Sequence record: NC_054932.1
Length of the DNA: 64,000 nt
DNA from: Escherichia phage teqdroes
Direction: 5' to 3' (one strand)
Shown: positions 44,794 through 58,287 of the stretch, in pieces
Layout of the letters: the number at the start of each line of letters is the position of its first letter
Position numbering within the stretch: the stretch's first letter is position 1
Program-made: the position numbers and the translations under genes
The notes under the pieces: generated by a model
Databases searched by the model: none
What the model saw: only the letters and a program-made list of their open reading frames with translations
Told to the model about the DNA's origin: nothing

Positions 44794-45518
44794 ATGAAAC
44801 TAATCTTTTTAAGCGGTGTAAAGCGTAGTGGAAAAGATACTACTGCTGATTTTATCATGAGCAATTATTCTGCAGTTAAATACCAACTTGCTGGTCCTAT
44901 TAAGGATGCATTGGCTTATGCATGGGGAGTATTTGCAGCAAACACTGACTATCCTTGCTTAACTCGTAAAGAGTTTGAAGGAATTGACTATGATCGTGAG
45001 ACTAATTTAAATCTGACTAAATTAGAAGTAATCACGATTATGGAACAAGCATTTTGCTATCTTAATGGTAAAAGCCCAATTAAAGGTGTGTTTGTTTTTG
45101 ATGACGAAGGAAAAGAATCAGTTAATTTCGTAGCATTTAACAAAATTACTGACGTTATAAATAATATTGAAGATCAATGGTCAGTCCGTCGTCTGATGCA
45201 AGCCCTAGGTACGGATTTGATTGTTAATAACTTCGACCGCATGTACTGGGTAAAATTATTTGCTTTAGATTATCTTGATAAATTTAACTCAGGTTATGAT
45301 TATTATATCGTTCCTGATACCCGTCAAGATCATGAAATGGATGCGGCTAGGGCGATGGGTGCTACAGTAATTCATGTAGTTCGTCCTGGTCAAAAATCCA
45401 ATGATACACATATTACAGAAGCTGGATTGCCAATTCGTGATGGCGATTTAGTAATTACAAACGATGGTTCTCTTGAAGAACTTTTTTCTAAAATTAAAAA
45501 TACACTAAAGGTACTATA

Positions 45519-45519
<1 letters not shown>
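44794..45519 (+). CDS. 1: deoxynucleoside monophosphate kinase gp1
   Basis: Start MKLIFLSGVKRSGKDT (P-loop) with GAGGAG ribosome-binding site; 241 aa from this start. Confidence 0.9.
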
Positions 45520-46216
<697 letters not shown>

Positions 46217-46228
46217 TTTCACAAAGTT

Positions 46229-46260
46229 GTTTACATACTGATGAGGTAGTGATACTATTA
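46229..46260 (+). promoter_or_regulatory. early promoter (GTTTAC -35, extended -10) with the -10 inside a GATGAG/CTCATC stem-loop
   Basis: Read from sequence upstream of ipI. Confidence 0.55.
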
Positions 46261-46288
46261 TCTCATCAAAATTAATTAGGAAAATAAA

Positions 46289-46576
46289 ATGAAAACATTT
46301 AAAGAATTTACTTCTACAACTACCCCGGTTTCTACCATTACCGAAGCTACTCTTACTTCTGAAGTTATTAAAGCAAATAAAGGACGAGAAGGTAAACCAA
46401 TGATTAGTCTGGTTGATGGCGAAGAAATCAAAGGTACTGTTTACCTAGGTGATGGGTGGTCTGCTAAAAAGGATGGTGCTACAATCGTTATCTCTCCTGC
46501 CGAAGAAACTGCGTTGTTTAAAGCTAAACACATTTCTGCAGCACATCTCAAGATTATTGCTAAAAATCTTTTGTAA
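46289..46576 (+). CDS. ipI: internal protein I (IPI), capsid-packaged anti-restriction protein
   Basis: 95-aa ORF; mature part ATLTSEVIKANKGREGKPMISLVDGEEIKG... recognised as T4 IPI*; N-terminal propeptide ends in an I-x-E gp21-type site. Confidence 0.85.
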   Translation: MKTFKEFTSTTTPVSTITEATLTSEVIKANKGREGKPMISLVDGEEIKGTVYLGDGWSAKKDGATIVISPAEETALFKAKHISAAHLKIIAKNLL

Positions 46577-46595
46577 TAAACAATTTCACAAAGTT

Positions 46596-46627
46596 GTTTA
46601 CACGGGGTTTTAGTAGTGATACTATTA
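46596..46627 (+). promoter_or_regulatory. early promoter, part of the repeated promoter/RBS cassette
   Basis: GTTTAC then GTGATACTAT; identical downstream 55 bp repeated at 46913. Confidence 0.55.
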
Positions 46628-46661
46628 CCCTATCAAAACAAATGTGAAATTGGAGAATAAA

Positions 46662-46895
46662 ATGAAAACGTATCAAGAATTTATTGCTGAAGCTGCTGAT
46701 GTAAAAGTTGAGTTTATTTACATTGGTAAGAAAGATAAAATGGGCGAAATGCCTCATGGAGTTCTTCGTGATGCATTAGATAATTTCGGTCAACTCGGTG
46801 GTGAAGAGTTTGGTGATTATTTTGTTATCTATGGACCAGAAAAAGTCATCGAGAAATGGGCTGATAAATATAAATCAATTTTTCGTAAAAAATAA
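46662..46895 (+). CDS. internal-protein-like small protein with capsid-targeting-type N-terminus (MKTYQEFIAEA)
   Basis: ATG 46662 after GGAG; 77 aa; the track ORF begins upstream at a GTG. Confidence 0.6.
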   Translation: MKTYQEFIAEAADVKVEFIYIGKKDKMGEMPHGVLRDALDNFGQLGGEEFGDYFVIYGPEKVIEKWADKYKSIFRKK

Positions 46896-46934
46896 GTTTA
46901 CTTTTAGATAGGGTAGTGATACTATTACCCTATC
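46896..46934 (+). promoter_or_regulatory. early promoter with the -10 in the loop of a perfect 9-bp hairpin (GATAGGGTA...TACCCTATC)
   Basis: Read from sequence. Confidence 0.55.
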
Positions 46935-46961
46935 AAAACAAATGTGAAATTGGAGAATAAA

Positions 46962-47147
46962 ATGAAACGTTGTGAATTAATTCGAAATGTTGCTATTGCA
47001 ATTTCTGCTTCCGCTTTTAGTTTTTCAATGTTTGTTGGATTTATATGTGGATTATTGACTACAGCAGAAAATGTGTTTTCACTTGTAGTAGCATTTTTAA
47101 TTGGTTTAATTGCTATTGTTATGGATAAAATTTCTAAAGGTGAATAA
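46962..47147 (+). CDS. small hydrophobic (membrane) protein, 61 aa
   Basis: ATG 46962 behind the same RBS cassette; two hydrophobic stretches. Confidence 0.5.
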   Translation: MKRCELIRNVAIAISASAFSFSMFVGFICGLLTTAENVFSLVVAFLIGLIAIVMDKISKGE

Positions 47148-47558
47148 ATGAGTATTAACGAATATTATGTTTATGCCGGGGATTATGCAAATCCTTCTCA
47201 TTTTGAAGGTAATTTAATACCTGATAAAGTTTTTAATACTCCTTTTGAAGCGTGGAGTTGGATTGAAAGTAAAAATGGATTTTCTTACCGTTATGTTGAA
47301 GTAACTGATTGGAGAGGAACTAAATATCCTAAAGACCATTATTACGTAAATCCATCTAAGGTAAATTTTCTTTTATTCGCAGGTGATAATTATTATCCTT
47401 GTGGCGGATATGATGATTTAATTGCGTATGCTGAAACAGAAGATAAACTGCGTGATATCATTAAAGAAAATGAAAATAAACCAGATTATGGTTCCAATCG
47501 TTTCGACTGGTGGCAAATCGTAAATGCCCATACTCATGCTATCGTTGATAGAGGCTGA
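47148..47558 (+). CDS. hypothetical protein
   Basis: 136-aa ORF directly abutting the previous stop. Confidence 0.5.
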   Translation: MSINEYYVYAGDYANPSHFEGNLIPDKVFNTPFEAWSWIESKNGFSYRYVEVTDWRGTKYPKDHYYVNPSKVNFLLFAGDNYYPCGGYDDLIAYAETEDKLRDIIKENENKPDYGSNRFDWWQIVNAHTHAIVDRG

Positions 47559-47560
47559 TA

Positions 47561-47848
47561 ATGATTCTTTATGCTAAAGTATCATCCATTGAAAATGGAT
47601 ATAAATATGATCAAGAAGCAGCTAAAGCCTTGATTGATGATTATGGCATTTTAACATGTTTTGAAGTTGAAAAGGTTTACATTGACCGTTCATCTTCTCA
47701 GGTTAAATTAGTGAAGGAAGACCGTAAATTTAATACAGTAAATTTTGATTTCTTTATTGAAACAGAAAAAGGTCCTCTTGAATATGATATTTTCAAGAAT
47801 CCTTTGGGTCTTGAATGCATCGTAAATATGTATTATCATAAATGGTAA
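47561..47848 (+). CDS. hypothetical protein
   Basis: 95-aa ORF. Confidence 0.5.
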   Translation: MILYAKVSSIENGYKYDQEAAKALIDDYGILTCFEVEKVYIDRSSSQVKLVKEDRKFNTVNFDFFIETEKGPLEYDIFKNPLGLECIVNMYYHKW

Positions 47849-47945
47849 ATATGCTTTAAGAATTATTTGTTATTATTAACTCATACCGCACTGATTAATA
47901 CCCTCTATCATCAAGGGTTCTTGCTAAAGAGCCTTTGTTAATAAT

Positions 47946-48018
47946 TGGGAATTAGCCAAGTTGGTAAGGCACTGGATTTTGATTCCAGGATGCAAAGGTT
48001 CGAGTCCTTTATTCCCAG
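47946..48018 (+). tRNA. tRNA-Gln: tRNA-Gln (anticodon UUG)
   Basis: Cloverleaf folded by hand; acceptor TGGGAAT/ATTCCCA; CCA not encoded. Confidence 0.75.
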
Positions 48019-48019
48019 C

Positions 48020-48106
48020 GCGAGAATGGTCAAATTGGTAAAGGCACAGCACTTAAAATGCTGCGGAATGATTTCCTTGTGGGTTCGAGTCCCACTTCTC
48101 GCACCA
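48020..48106 (+). tRNA. tRNA-Leu: tRNA-Leu (anticodon UAA), long variable arm, CCA encoded
   Basis: Cloverleaf folded by hand; acceptor GCGAGAA/TTCTCGC. Confidence 0.75.
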
Positions 48107-48111
48107 AATTT

Positions 48112-48185
<74 letters not shown>

Positions 48186-48231
48186 ATTTATGACTCGTCG
48201 TGAGACGCTCAGTTCTTTATTAGGGACTGAT

Positions 48232-48840
48232 ATGCATTTTTATCTTTATAAAATAACAAATAAAATTAATAATAAAATTTATATTGGTGTGCATTCTACC
48301 GAAAATTTAGATGATGGATATATGGGTTCTGGTAAATTATTAAAAAGAGCCCAAGACAAGTATGGTATAGAAAATTTCTCTAAAGAAATATTAGAGTATT
48401 TTGATGATAAAGAATCTATGCTTGAAGCCGAGAAAAATATTGTCACAGAAGAGTTTTTAAATAGACCAGATGTGTATAATTTAAAACTTGGCGGAGAAGG
48501 TGGATGGGACCATATAAATAATTATCCTATGACAGATCAGCAACGCGAATTAATTTCATTGGGTGTTAAAAAGGCACATTCTAACGGAAAATTAAAAGGA
48601 TGGTCTTCAAATGGATTAATGAAGAATGGCTTTGCTGGTAAAAATCATTCTCAAGAAGCTAAACGTAAAATAGCAAAAGCAAACGAAGCAAAAGTTTCTG
48701 CGGATGAAAGAAAAAGAAGAATAGAAATTTCTAAATTATATGATTTTTCTAAGCGTGGTGAATTATCTAAATATGCTAAGCATATTGGCGTAAGTCATAC
48801 TCAAGCAAAAAGAATTCTAAATCAAATTAACAATATATAA
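48232..48840 (+). mobile_element. segB: GIY-YIG homing endonuclease (SegB-like) inside the tRNA cluster
   Basis: FYLYKITNKINNKIYIGVH...YMGSG GIY-YIG motif; track ORF opens at 48190 but ATG 48232 has an AGGGA ribosome-binding site. Confidence 0.75.
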
Positions 48841-48846
48841 ATATTT

Positions 48847-48936
48847 GGAGGCGTGGCAGAGTGGTTTAATGCACCGGTCTTGAAAACCGGCAGTCGCTCC
48901 GGCGACTCATAGGTTCAAATCCTATCGCCTCCGCCA
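48847..48936 (+). tRNA. tRNA-Ser: tRNA-Ser (anticodon UGA), long variable arm, CCA encoded
   Basis: Cloverleaf folded by hand. Confidence 0.75.
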
Positions 48937-48942
48937 GTTTTT

Positions 48943-49018
48943 GCTGATTTAGCTCAGTAGGTAGAGCACCTCACTTGTAATGAGGACGTCGGCGGTTCGA
49001 TTCCGTCAATCAGCACCA
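48943..49018 (+). tRNA. tRNA-Thr: tRNA-Thr (anticodon UGU), CCA encoded
   Basis: Cloverleaf folded by hand. Confidence 0.75.
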
Positions 49019-49019
49019 A

Positions 49020-49094
49020 GGCCCTGTAGCTGGAAGGTTCAAGCAAGCGACTCATAATCGCCAGATGGTGGTTCAATTCCACCCAGGGCCACCA
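49020..49094 (+). tRNA. tRNA with CAU anticodon (Ile2/lysidine-type or Met)
   Basis: Cloverleaf folded by hand; identity between Ile(CAU) and Met cannot be decided from sequence alone. Confidence 0.6.
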
Positions 49095-49106
49095 AATTAT
49101 GAATTA

Positions 49107-49193
49107 GGGGAGTTATCCCGTAGAGGTAGCGGTGTGGACTGTAAATTCATTGTCATTGCGACTCGGGTGGTTCGACTCCACCACTCCCCACCA
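49107..49193 (+). tRNA. tRNA-Tyr: tRNA-Tyr (anticodon GUA), type II long variable arm
   Basis: 87 nt with CCA; anticodon loop CTGTAAA; T-arm GGTGG-TTCGACT-CCACC; acceptor GGGGAGT/ACTCCCC. Confidence 0.55.
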
Positions 49194-49197
49194 ATTT

Positions 49198-49272
49198 GGA
49201 TGTGTAGCTCAATGGTAGAGCGATCGCCTGTTAAGCGATTGGTTATAGGTTCGAATCCTATCACGTCCGCCA
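49198..49272 (+). tRNA. tRNA-Asn: tRNA-Asn (anticodon GUU)
   Basis: Cloverleaf folded by hand; anticodon loop CTGTTAA. Confidence 0.6.
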
Positions 49273-49386
49273 AATTTGTGACAACTGTCACATTAATATC
49301 TACTTGACGCGATTATAGGGGTTGAACTGATCACTCTTCTCTTAATTTCGTGTGAAGACATCTTGATTGTTGGAGTAGGTATTAAT

Positions 49387-49462
49387 GTGGCCGTAGTTCA
49401 GTTGGTAGAACTCGAGATTGTGATTCTCGTAGTCATGGGTTCGACTCCCATCGGTCACCCCA
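49387..49462 (+). tRNA. tRNA-His: tRNA-His (anticodon GUG)
   Basis: Cloverleaf folded by hand; anticodon loop TTGTGAT. Confidence 0.6.
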
Positions 49463-49466
49463 ATTA

Positions 49467-49542
49467 CGGGGCATAGCTCAGAAGGAAGAGCAAGGACCTT
49501 CTAAGTCCTAGGTCGTAGGTTCGATCCCTACTGCCTCGACCA
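49467..49542 (+). tRNA. tRNA-Arg: tRNA-Arg (anticodon UCU)
   Basis: Cloverleaf folded by hand; anticodon loop CTTCTAA. Confidence 0.7.
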
Positions 49543-49560
49543 ATTATAAGTGAGGAAAAT

Positions 49561-49911
49561 ATGAAAGGTAATGTTTATTTAGTAGTTCATGATTTAACAT
49601 TTTACTTCAATGAATATGAAAAACATATCTCATTTCGTGAAATTAATTTACTTTATCAACACGCGGATTATATTTATATTCAAAACGAATTTGGTCATTG
49701 GCAATTTCTCAAAAATCGTTCATTTGGCTTAGATGGTTACGAATACTTTGAACGTAAAGACCTTTTAGATAAAATTCCGTTATCTACGCAATATCAAAAT
49801 CACAAATCTTTATATAAATGCCGTCCAATTCGAAATGTTGAATCCGCGTATGAAGCAATTGATTTATGGCGTGAACGCCGTAAACAGATTGATGCTTTAA
49901 AAGAATATTAA
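49561..49911 (+). CDS. hypothetical protein
   Basis: 116-aa ORF directly downstream of the tRNA cluster. Confidence 0.5.
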   Translation: MKGNVYLVVHDLTFYFNEYEKHISFREINLLYQHADYIYIQNEFGHWQFLKNRSFGLDGYEYFERKDLLDKIPLSTQYQNHKSLYKCRPIRNVESAYEAIDLWRERRKQIDALKEY

Positions 49912-49914
49912 GAA

Positions 49915-50248
49915 ACCGGGTCGCTACCGGTAAGTCGTCGGACTGATGTTCCCTGAGTAAGGAATTGCGTTAATAATCTTTGCGTTTATTGATGCCCTCT
50001 TACATCACAGCAGAAACGGCGCACCGAATTATCGATTCGAGGAAATATCTTTGCCGTAAGCCGAGTAGCGTTTTTGACGGAACGTTCGGATATGGTCGAG
50101 ATATGGCCTTTTAAAAATATTGAGTAGCGTCAACTGCTTAATAACCGGGTTCGAATCCCGGCGTTTCGTACAAACACTTGCCTTAGCAGGTGGAACCCCG
50201 ACAAGGTTGCCGCAAGGCTTAGCCCCGACCGAAAGGTTGGGGCTTTTT
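49915..50248 (+). ncRNA. candidate stable small RNA region (compare T4 species 1/2 RNAs), ending in a rho-independent terminator
   Basis: About 330 bp with no convincing ORF; tRNA T-arm-like CCGGG-TTCGAAT-CCCGG at 50145..50161; hairpin plus T-run at 50221..50248. Confidence 0.35.
50221..50248 (+). terminator. rho-independent terminator AGCCCCGACC-GAAA-GGTTGGGGCT plus T5
   Basis: Read from sequence. Confidence 0.65.
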
Positions 50249-50250
50249 GG

Positions 50251-50258
50251 TATAAATA
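50251..50258 (+). promoter_or_regulatory. late promoter core TATAAATA upstream of the IP-like ORF
   Basis: Exact motif about 37 nt before the ATG at 50295. Confidence 0.5.
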
Positions 50259-50294
50259 AGTATATTAAAACCACGAATTAAAACAGGAAATAAG

Positions 50295-50768
50295 ATGAAA
50301 TCATATGCTCAATTTTTAAATGAAGCGGTGTTAAATGAAGCATCTAGCACCGAAATTCAAGCTGTCGCAAAAGCAGCCATTGCCGCGGGTAAATATTCCT
50401 ATAAAGATGCTTCCGATGAATCACGATTCCAATTTGCTCGTGATATGAAAGCCGAAGGATTTACAGGGAATGCAGTTAGTATGGCCTGGAAAAGTTTAGT
50501 TGCTACTGGCGCTGCTTTTGCAAAGGCTTCAGGTAAACCTGCTCCTAAAGCAGATCCTAAAGCTACACAAGAAAAAAATATTGTTAAAGGAATTATCTCC
50601 AAATATGAAGCTATCCTTAAAGAGCTTTTAGTAATCAAAACTGAAGGTCAAAAGTTAGCTCGTGCTTATAGTTTCAAAGATAACCCACATGCTCACTCTC
50701 TTGAGTATGTTGAAGACATCCAAAAAATTATTAAAGACCGCATTTGGTCTGCTAAACAAATCAAATAA
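50295..50768 (+). CDS. internal-protein-like protein (157 aa) with capsid-targeting-like N-terminus MKSYAQFLNEA
   Basis: N-terminus resembles the T4 internal-protein targeting sequence with L-x-E sites; bracketed by homologous terminators. Confidence 0.5.
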   Translation: MKSYAQFLNEAVLNEASSTEIQAVAKAAIAAGKYSYKDASDESRFQFARDMKAEGFTGNAVSMAWKSLVATGAAFAKASGKPAPKADPKATQEKNIVKGIISKYEAILKELLVIKTEGQKLARAYSFKDNPHAHSLEYVEDIQKIIKDRIWSAKQIK

Positions 50769-50775
50769 CATTCTT

Positions 50776-50803
50776 AGTCCCAACCGAAAGGTTGGGACTT
50801 TTT
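50776..50803 (+). terminator. rho-independent terminator AGTCCCAACC-GAAA-GGTTGGGACT plus T-run
   Basis: Homologous to the 50221 terminator with compensatory stem changes. Confidence 0.65.
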
Positions 50804-50936
50804 GGTATCTAGGCCTTTCTGGGCCTCTCTAGGCATCATTTAGTTTCTACCCTTTATAATATATTATCCTATCTTTTAATTGCCCCTCCTGACCCTAGAA
50901 TTCCCTAAAACTTTTTAAAAATTTTTTCACAAAACT

Positions 50937-50968
50937 GTTTACATCCCTTTTCTTCCATGGTACTATAC
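50937..50968 (+). promoter_or_regulatory. early promoter (GTTTAC ... TGGTACTATAC)
   Basis: Read from sequence. Confidence 0.5.
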
Positions 50969-51273: not shown

Positions 51274-51312
51274 GTTTACATAGGCTCATGATTGAGATAT
51301 TATGAGCCTATA
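51274..51312 (+). promoter_or_regulatory. early promoter with the -10 in the loop of a perfect 10-bp hairpin (ATAGGCTCAT...ATGAGCCTAT)
   Basis: Read from sequence. Confidence 0.55.
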
Positions 51313-51329
51313 CAAATGAGGAAAACATT

Positions 51330-55126: not shown

Positions 55127-55163
55127 TGTTTACTTTCTCCTAGAATTGTGATAGTATATTCAC
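55127..55163 (+). promoter_or_regulatory. early promoter with the -10 in a TGTGA/TCACA stem-loop
   Basis: GTTTAC then TGTGATAGTATAT. Confidence 0.5.
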
Positions 55164-55182
55164 AGTTACTTGGAGGGATAAA

Positions 55183-55608: not shown

Positions 55609-56082
55609 ATGAAAACATATCAAGAATTTATCACTGAAGCAGCTATTAATTCTCAAATTATTGCTGAATCTTTTACTGATCTTTTGAAATTTAAAAAAGG
55701 TCAAAAAATCACTGCTGTATTGGATGATGGTACAGAAGTTGAGATGGATGTACAGGGATATAATTATGCAGTAGATGGAAAACTGTATAATAAATCTCAT
55801 GCTAAATTTGATTCATTTGACGACTTTGTTAATACAGTTGAAGATGAAAAAACTCGTAGATCCATTGCAACTGGTGATGCTAAGGTTCTTATGGCACATG
55901 GTCATGAACGCATTCGCGCTAAACAGAATAAAATGGGTGAAGATAATTTTGCATTAGTTGGTTATCAATCTGGTAAACAAACTTATGGCTATCAACGTAC
56001 TGCTACCATGTATAACAAAAATGGTAAAATTGCCTTTGTGAATAGTAAAGGTTCTATTCAGTACGTTAAATCGTTCAAATAA
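55609..56082 (+). CDS. internal-protein-like protein (157 aa) with canonical capsid-targeting N-terminus MKTYQEFITEA
   Basis: N-terminal 11 residues match the T4 internal-protein targeting sequence; AAGGA ribosome-binding site. Confidence 0.6.
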   Translation: MKTYQEFITEAAINSQIIAESFTDLLKFKKGQKITAVLDDGTEVEMDVQGYNYAVDGKLYNKSHAKFDSFDDFVNTVEDEKTRRSIATGDAKVLMAHGHERIRAKQNKMGEDNFALVGYQSGKQTYGYQRTATMYNKNGKIAFVNSKGSIQYVKSFK

Positions 56083-58230: not shown

Positions 58231-58260
58231 GTTTACTTTTCCTCTTGACTGTGGTATAAT
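58231..58260 (+). promoter_or_regulatory. early promoter (GTTTAC ... TGTGGTATAAT)
   Basis: Near-consensus extended -10. Confidence 0.6.
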
Positions 58261-58287
58261 TTTTCTATCAGTTAAGAGGAGAATAAC

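Follow-up and report, generated by a model that had tools for sequence, protein, structure and literature searches.

The cassettes considered here belong to a class that has already been described, the promoter-early stem-loop or PeSL (PMC2839356, PMC4122927). PeSLs were defined in phages RB49 and phi1, for which both promoter and terminator activity was demonstrated and mini-circles, arising from recombination between neighbouring PeSLs, were detected (Arbiol et al., 2010; PMC2839356). They were then extended to T4/PST, where the published promoter consensus is TTTACW-N17-TAYWAT, and their link to the internal-protein (IP) locus was repeated (Comeau et al., 2014; PMC4122927). In these two papers, PeSL-like sequences at the two T-even IP loci are credited to Repoila et al. 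(1994) (PMC2839356, PMC4122927). Arbiol et al. regard the IP-locus elements as analogues with weaker, AT-richer stems and not as homologues of the RB49 PeSLs (PMC2839356).

At the sequence level, the cassettes of the locus analysed here bear all of the defining features of a PeSL: an AT-rich upstream stretch, an early promoter, a stem-loop, a Shine-Dalgarno sequence and a start codon. The putative promoters fit the T4/PST consensus, the stem-loop overlaps the -10 box, which is one of the common positions described, and the cassettes lie between small variable genes of a hyperplastic region. In addition, a relative has one chimeric cassette where the window (the whole 64-kb stretch of DNA that was analysed) has a cassette-gene-cassette unit. 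The stems differ from those of RB49 and phi1 in being AT-richer and without polyG/polyC, and terminator activity and mini-circles were shown for RB49 and phi1 only. The locus is also of the type treated by Repoila and coworkers, namely the highly variable T-even IP loci, for which that work reportedly likewise makes IP-associated elements the basis of variation in IP number, order and identity. Their 1994 report (EMBO J 13:4181) is said to describe a 5′ regulatory sequence that IP genes share together with their first ~10 codons.

Two further systems offer a comparison. T4 deletes and amplifies segments of its genome via homologies of 6-10 bp (Srikant et al., 2022; PMC9391042), and Mosig (1998) is cited for microhomology recombination in T4 by Arbiol et al. 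(PMC2839356). As in those events, direct repeats in non-essential early regions would here let the phage recombination machinery delete or amplify the segment between them; however, T4 microhomologies are chance matches of 6-10 bp, whereas the window repeat is a 55-nt functional cassette, so that the products keep their expression signals. Integron attC sites resemble the locus by analogy only, in that small promoter-proximal genes stand in variable arrays and an imperfect inverted repeat, conserved more in structure than in sequence, bounds each gene. Unlike integrons, the locus has no known integrase, its junctions vary within the cassette, and each window cassette brings its own promoter.

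Genes and cassettes of the internal-protein locus

The window is from a Tequatrovirus, or T4-like phage. Identity of the region is 99% with Escherichia phage vB_EcoM_KAW1E185 and about 98% with T4, and 875 phage records, mostly of Tequatrovirus and its relatives, match it. The repeat sits in the variable IP locus between 57B and trna.4, where all genes lie on the + strand: gene 1 (dNMP kinase) ends at 45519 and is followed by 57A (45519-45761), 57B (45761-46216), ipI (internal protein I, 46289-46576), an ip6-type internal protein gene of 77 aa (46662-46895), trna.4 (46962-47147), trna.3 and trna.2 (after 47148) and, from 47946, the tRNA genes, which are interrupted by a GIY-YIG endonuclease gene. 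The product of ipI is 100% identical to T4 IPI and belongs to PF11634 (IPI_T4; E 7e-54), a family that Pfam names T4 nuclease inhibitor. IPI is a GmrSD inhibitor, and the GmrSD enzyme that is inhibited differs among IPI, IPII and IPIII (PMC12373910).

The ip6-type gene is absent from T4 but present in 244 phage records. Its product matches PHROG 8111 (phrog_8111, 'internal virion protein') over its full length with E 1.8e-50, and ORFs of this type are annotated as Ip6 or ipVI in the records of VR7, JK08 and GiZh. The original prediction of a targeting-sequence protein at 46662 is borne out by this match and by the N-terminus, MKTYQEFIAE followed by A, a leader that ends in Glu-Ala as in all 13 IP families of the locus; this Glu-Ala we take to be the prohead-protease cleavage site. 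Leaders of the MKTYQEFIAE type direct internal proteins into the capsid (PMC3012670, PMC12373910). By analogy with IPI, IPII and IPIII, Ip6 is predicted to be an injected anti-restriction protein. A sequence search of the PDB gave no meaningful match to Ip6 (best E 0.04), and a sequence search of the Pfam copy used gave no family for Ip6 or for trna.4 to trna.2, PF26870 being the family listed for trna.4. The hydrophobic peptide predicted at 46962 is T4 trna.4, a 61-aa product that the T4 annotation lists as a predicted membrane protein, and its gene has a fixed place just downstream of the IP array.

Several features of the neighbourhood were noted in passing. The product of 57B, which phage records annotate as hypothetical, RNA ligase or cyclic phosphodiesterase, matches the anti-CBASS protein Acb1 of Pfam with E 2.6e-60, and the IP array therefore directly adjoins another anti-defence gene. 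On the other side, KAW1E185 has at about 47829 an extra 516-nt ORF between trna.2 and tRNA-Gln that is absent from the window and from T4. The tRNA cluster (47946-49542) holds ten tRNA genes against eight in T4; its GIY-YIG homing endonuclease gene (48190-48840) lies between tRNA-Gly and tRNA-Ser, whereas T4 segB lies between tRNA-Ile and tRNA-Arg. Farther on, two terminator-like G+C hairpins with T-tracts (50218-50253 and 50773-50808), 92% identical and with compensating differences in their stems, enclose an ORF of 157 aa (50295-50768) with the leader-like start MKSYAQFLNEA, a second gene bracketed by direct repeats, though these are of another kind. An endonuclease V-like ORF is followed by one more gene with a leader (MKTYQEFITEAA..., 157 aa; 55609-56082), whose Shine-Dalgarno-plus-leader DNA is 84% identical to that of ip6 over 43 nt, a stretch of homology through which the two IP loci could potentially exchange sequence.

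Three intergenic cassettes, all on the + strand, share a common layout. The first, between 57B and ipI (46211-46288), has an UP/-35 block, AATTTCACAAAGTTGTTTACA, a -35 hexamer TTTACA at 46230-46235, TG followed by the -10 box TACTAT at 46253-46258, hairpin arms at 46239-46251 and 46256-46268 (-14.8 kcal/mol, z -3.6), and AGGA at 46278-46281 before the ATG at 46289. In the second, between ipI and ip6 (46577-46661), TTTACA is at 46597-46602, TG at 46617-46618 and TACTAT at 46620-46625. Its hairpin (46604-46631) folds with -16.2 kcal/mol (z -3.4), or -29.6 (z -5.2) in an extended form, and a leader, AAAACAAATGTGAAATT (46635-46651), leads to GGAG at 46652-46655. The third, between ip6 and trna.4 (46896-46961), begins with TTTACT at 46897-46902, immediately 3′ of the ip6 stop codon, and has TACTAT at 46920-46925, 12-bp hairpin arms at 46907-46918 and 46923-46934, in which GAUAGGGUAGUG pairs with UAUUACCCUAUC (-16.4 kcal/mol, z -3.4), and GGAG at 46952-46955. 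GGAG is followed after 6 nt by ATG AAA at both 46662 and 46962. The common promoter pattern is that of a T4 early promoter, TTTACW, a 17-nt spacer and TGnTACTAT; the TG was found by a promoter scan in the first two cassettes and by eye in the third. In the window, TTTACW-N17-TAYWAT occurs 7 times against 0.32 expected, including the matches at 46230, 46597 and 46897, and in fPS-90 the three corresponding positions are annotated as predicted early promoters. From the putative promoters of the second and third cassettes, transcripts would start ~7 nt past the -10 box, at about 46632 or 46932. With such starts, a transcript from the cassette's own promoter lacks the hairpin, which therefore would form only on read-through RNA or in DNA.

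A terminator scan gave nothing in the cassettes, and no U-tract follows the stem; the terminator role of RB49 PeSLs is therefore not simply transferable, and termination here is doubtful. Rfam at a permissive threshold returned, over 45400-50400, tRNAs and sub-threshold noise only, none of it in the cassettes. The A-rich leader of ip6 is less structured than all of 200 shuffles (200/200; z +2.4). This leader, AAAACAAATGTGAAATTG (46635-46651), is complementary to an upstream block, CAATTTCACAAAGTTGTTT (46581-46599), and the whole promoter would therefore be enclosed, on read-through RNA, in one long hairpin ending at GGAG; the copy before trna.4 lacks an upstream partner for a leader of this type. 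A T4 late-promoter consensus, TATAAATA, at 45156-45163 on the + strand inside gene 1 (the window has 26 such matches where 9.6 are expected) could be a source of read-through RNA across 57A, 57B and the IP genes. Inverted repeats also bracket the -10 boxes (51298, 55152 and 58255) of other early-promoter matches, at 51275-51320, 55130-55175 and 58232-58280 (z -3.9 to -5.4), while the matches at 50961, 51689 and 62451 have none around the -10. Since several other window promoters have this architecture, the class extends over the genome, in agreement with the PeSL papers.

The 55-nt repeat and the 17-nt patch

Comparison of the window with itself showed that 46613-46667 and 46913-46967 (both on the + strand) are identical over exactly 55 nt (GTAGTGATACTATTACCCTATCAAAACAAATGTGAAATTGGAGAATAAAATGAAA). 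The coordinates in the original prediction were therefore right, while the string typed there lacked the first G and had 54 letters. This pair is the longest exact direct repeat of the window, and none of 100 dinucleotide-preserving shuffles of the window contained a match to it. The copies are preceded by A on the left and G on the right and followed by ACG and CGT, respectively, and upstream of the identity there is weaker similarity of 67-79% over 66 nt; a third, diverged copy lies before ipI (46211-46300). Each 55-nt copy makes up the 3′ portion of a regulatory cassette: it begins with the extended -10, takes in the 3′ hairpin arm, the leader and the Shine-Dalgarno sequence, and ends with ATG AAA; the -35 hexamers and the 5′ hairpin arm fall outside it. 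The early -10, the Shine-Dalgarno sequence and the Met-Lys codons of two different small ORFs, which had been ascribed to each copy, were all found in place. Because these two ORFs are unrelated beyond Met-Lys, a tandem duplication of a whole gene was ruled out.

Perfect identity of the two copies sets this genome apart. The cassettes flanking ip6 in the nearest relatives share only GTAGTGATACTATTACCCTATC (22 nt) and GGAGAATAAAATGAAA (16 nt), as checked in KAW1E185, 303Ecol101PP, teqskov and eight of ten contigs fetched for an identical Ip6 (one of them being the 303Ecol101PP record); the 22-nt block is broken by a substitution in three of these relatives (KAW1E185, L045 and L047). The remaining two contigs are L049, with a different left cassette, and L043, with the perfect 55-mer. 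Between the two blocks, the relatives have AAAACAAATGTGAAATT on the left and TACTACTGA or AACTACTGA on the right. In the window, the 9-nt TACTACTGA of the nearest relatives is replaced at 46935-46951 (+ strand) by the 17-nt leader of the left cassette, and 22, 17 and 16 nt therefore add up to 55. This 17-for-9-nt patch is the sole difference between the window and 303Ecol101PP from about 45.7 kb to 47.4 kb (about 1.7 kb). The resulting right-hand junction was found in none of 50,697 phage genomes, and an exact search gave none in IMG/VR and none in the JGI metagenomes. One ENA metagenome scaffold, L043, has it, with 2 mismatches to the window in 1205 nt, and is the only other assembly examined that carries the patch. 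Among 121 within-locus cassette pairs, the longest shared exact block had a median of 12 nt and the next-best pair reached 32 nt, so that the 55 nt of the window are extreme.

The patch is most simply read as the trace of short-patch gene conversion, with one cassette as donor to the other and the shared blocks as its limits. Equivalently, a crossover in the 16-nt block could first have caused a deletion and a second one, in the 22-nt block, a re-insertion. The leader might alternatively have come from a distant phage, as some have a similar trna.4 leader, AAAACAAATGAGTGATT; this is less likely because the patch equals the phage's own left cassette, shows 3 differences from the AAAACAAATGAGTGATT type and has no flanking SNPs. 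Set against the PeSLs already described, this private 17-nt conversion, which makes the repeat perfect, appears to be the new detail.

Gene turnover at the locus and its probable route

T4 has ipI, a single cassette and trna.4, and lacks the cassette-ip6-cassette unit. In alignment, its cassette is chimeric, following the left cassette of the window up to ...GGGTTTTAG and the right one from GTGATACTATTACCCTATC on, with the junction inside GTGATACTATTACCCTATC; it has the form expected of the product of a crossover between two cassettes, or of the substrate for the reverse insertion. In another relative, L034, 57B is followed by a cassette and ip6 without ipI, the shared block AATTTCACAAAGTTGTTTACA being the site of the junction. 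Across 43 related loci taken from IMG/VR, GenBank, ENA and Logan (of which 10 were chosen for carrying Ip6, so that frequencies are biased), the interval from 57B to trna.4 holds 0-5 IP genes of 13 families in 20 configurations, and IP order changes as well, e.g., G-B versus B-G. These comparisons lend support to the original prediction that the repeat is a substrate for deletion or swapping of the gene between its copies, and no better deletion substrate than the 55-nt repeat was seen at the locus. The gene ip6 is the last before trna.4 in every locus examined, and a search of IMG/VR for ip6 outside the 57B-trna.4 locus found none, its only five loci being already in the set and next to trna.4. 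Therefore ip6 does not visibly move, and the variation lies upstream of it or in its presence or absence. Some IP genes of more distant phages have no cassette and directly adjoin the previous gene, which means that diversity of the array does not require the cassette.

A chimeric gene was also seen in L043 (ENA ERZ28659736 scaffold_139, 1019-1279), in which the IPI leader, MKTFKEFTSTTTPVSTITE, is joined to the mature part of Ip6, AADVKVEF..., corresponding to window positions 46289-46348 joined to 46683-46895, with the junction at shared GAAGCT (Glu-Ala) codons. It is followed by a gap of 100 N that starts and ends exactly at the 55-mer, and then by a normal ip6. The chimera may have arisen by natural recombination at the targeting-leader codons, or the scaffold may combine more than one strain.

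In the cassette hairpin, it is the structure that is under selection. Related loci yielded 51 distinct cassettes, 40 of which form a fold spanning the -10 box with z < -2, and their arms vary yet stay complementary (GATAGGGTA/TACCCTATC, GATGAGGTA/TACCTCATC, TAGGACTAT/ATAGTCCTA, GTGTAGGGATAT/ATATCCCTACAC and GATGGGATAA/TTATCCCATC). When pairs were counted over 28 cassettes in the fixed register of the window, 73% of cells were paired, against 34-59% with the partner slid. Eight of the 12 pairs were changed on both sides, against 6.1 ± 1.2 in shuffles (66 of 500 reach 8), and there were 28 double-change cells, against 12.7 ± 2.6 (0 of 500 reach 28).

Very probably, the repeat represents two PeSL-type cassettes preceding genes of the variable T-even IP locus. 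Each cassette would be a self-contained expression signal. Since neighbouring cassettes share identical blocks, the very active homologous recombination of the phage would be able to cross over between them, and a crossover would remove, insert or exchange the IP gene in between while the remaining genes keep an intact promoter and ribosome site. The private leader patch and the chimeric cassette of T4 are indirect evidence of recombination between neighbouring cassettes. In the cassettes flanking ip6 here, short-patch conversion or two crossovers inside the 22-nt and 16-nt blocks would have copied the left leader onto the right.

That the identity reflects nothing but shared constraint on a promoter and ribosome-site consensus, with no part in gene turnover, is highly improbable: although the -35, -10 and Shine-Dalgarno sequences are consensus elements that recur at unrelated early genes (50961, 51298, 58255 and 62451), the 17-nt leader is free to vary, close relatives having a different 9-nt leader with the same gene and the same Shine-Dalgarno sequence. 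Its identity here must therefore come from copying, and the boundaries of indels between relatives coincide with cassettes. An assembly artefact, in which the true right cassette has TACTACTGA and two near-identical cassettes were mixed by the assembler, deserves attention in that 55 is a common largest k of short-read assemblers and equals the repeat length, that the right junction is missing from the three collections searched, and that the L043 scaffold is interrupted by a run of N precisely at the 55-mer. The length, however, follows from the sequence as the sum of the two blocks and the leader, and a misresolved repeat would be expected to yield a tandem ip6 rather than the left leader followed by trna.4. 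Moreover, an artefact needs two switches, one of them within the 16-nt block, which is too short for a graph node at k of at least 21, and L043, which is not the same sequence as the window, has the same junction independently. On these last two grounds an artefact is very unlikely.

The conserved hairpin raises the question of whether it is a recognised element rather than passive homology, as in a dedicated, structure-specific recombination system resembling that of integron attC sites. Conservation of structure while the arm sequences change speaks for such a system, and a specific DNA-binding or helper protein has been raised by Arbiol et al. (PMC2839356); T4, however, recombines efficiently at homologies of 6-10 bp (PMC9391042). 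The junctions, moreover, fall at varied places, in the UP/-35 block when L034 is compared with the window, in the 22-nt -10/stem block for T4, in the 16-nt Shine-Dalgarno/ATG block for the patch and in the Glu-Ala codons of the coding leader for L043, as homology-driven exchange predicts. To our knowledge, there is no candidate recombinase in T4-like phages, and a dedicated system seems quite unlikely. In a related form of the idea, exchange would be directed by structure, with the -10 hairpin as its working part, for instance as a cruciform or a folded single strand cut by the junction-resolving nuclease of the phage; short-patch homogenisation would then be frequent, the 17-nt patch a fresh footprint of it, and the IP genes true mobile cassettes. 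This, too, we consider unlikely, and homology-driven exchange between PeSL-type cassettes is the preferred reading.

Internal proteins enter the cell with the phage DNA and, where tested, disarm specific GmrSD-type restriction enzymes; the IP set therefore helps decide which hosts can be infected. Inhibition of a distinct GmrSD enzyme by each IP also explains why turnover at the locus would be selected. Cassettes that allow IP genes to be gained, lost and reordered with their expression kept are a plausible engine for this arms race, an idea that is established and to which the present case mainly adds an example. The private 17-nt conversion is modest direct sequence evidence of ongoing exchange between neighbouring cassettes, and the window genome, as a natural substrate, is conveniently suited to measurements of deletion and of circle formation.
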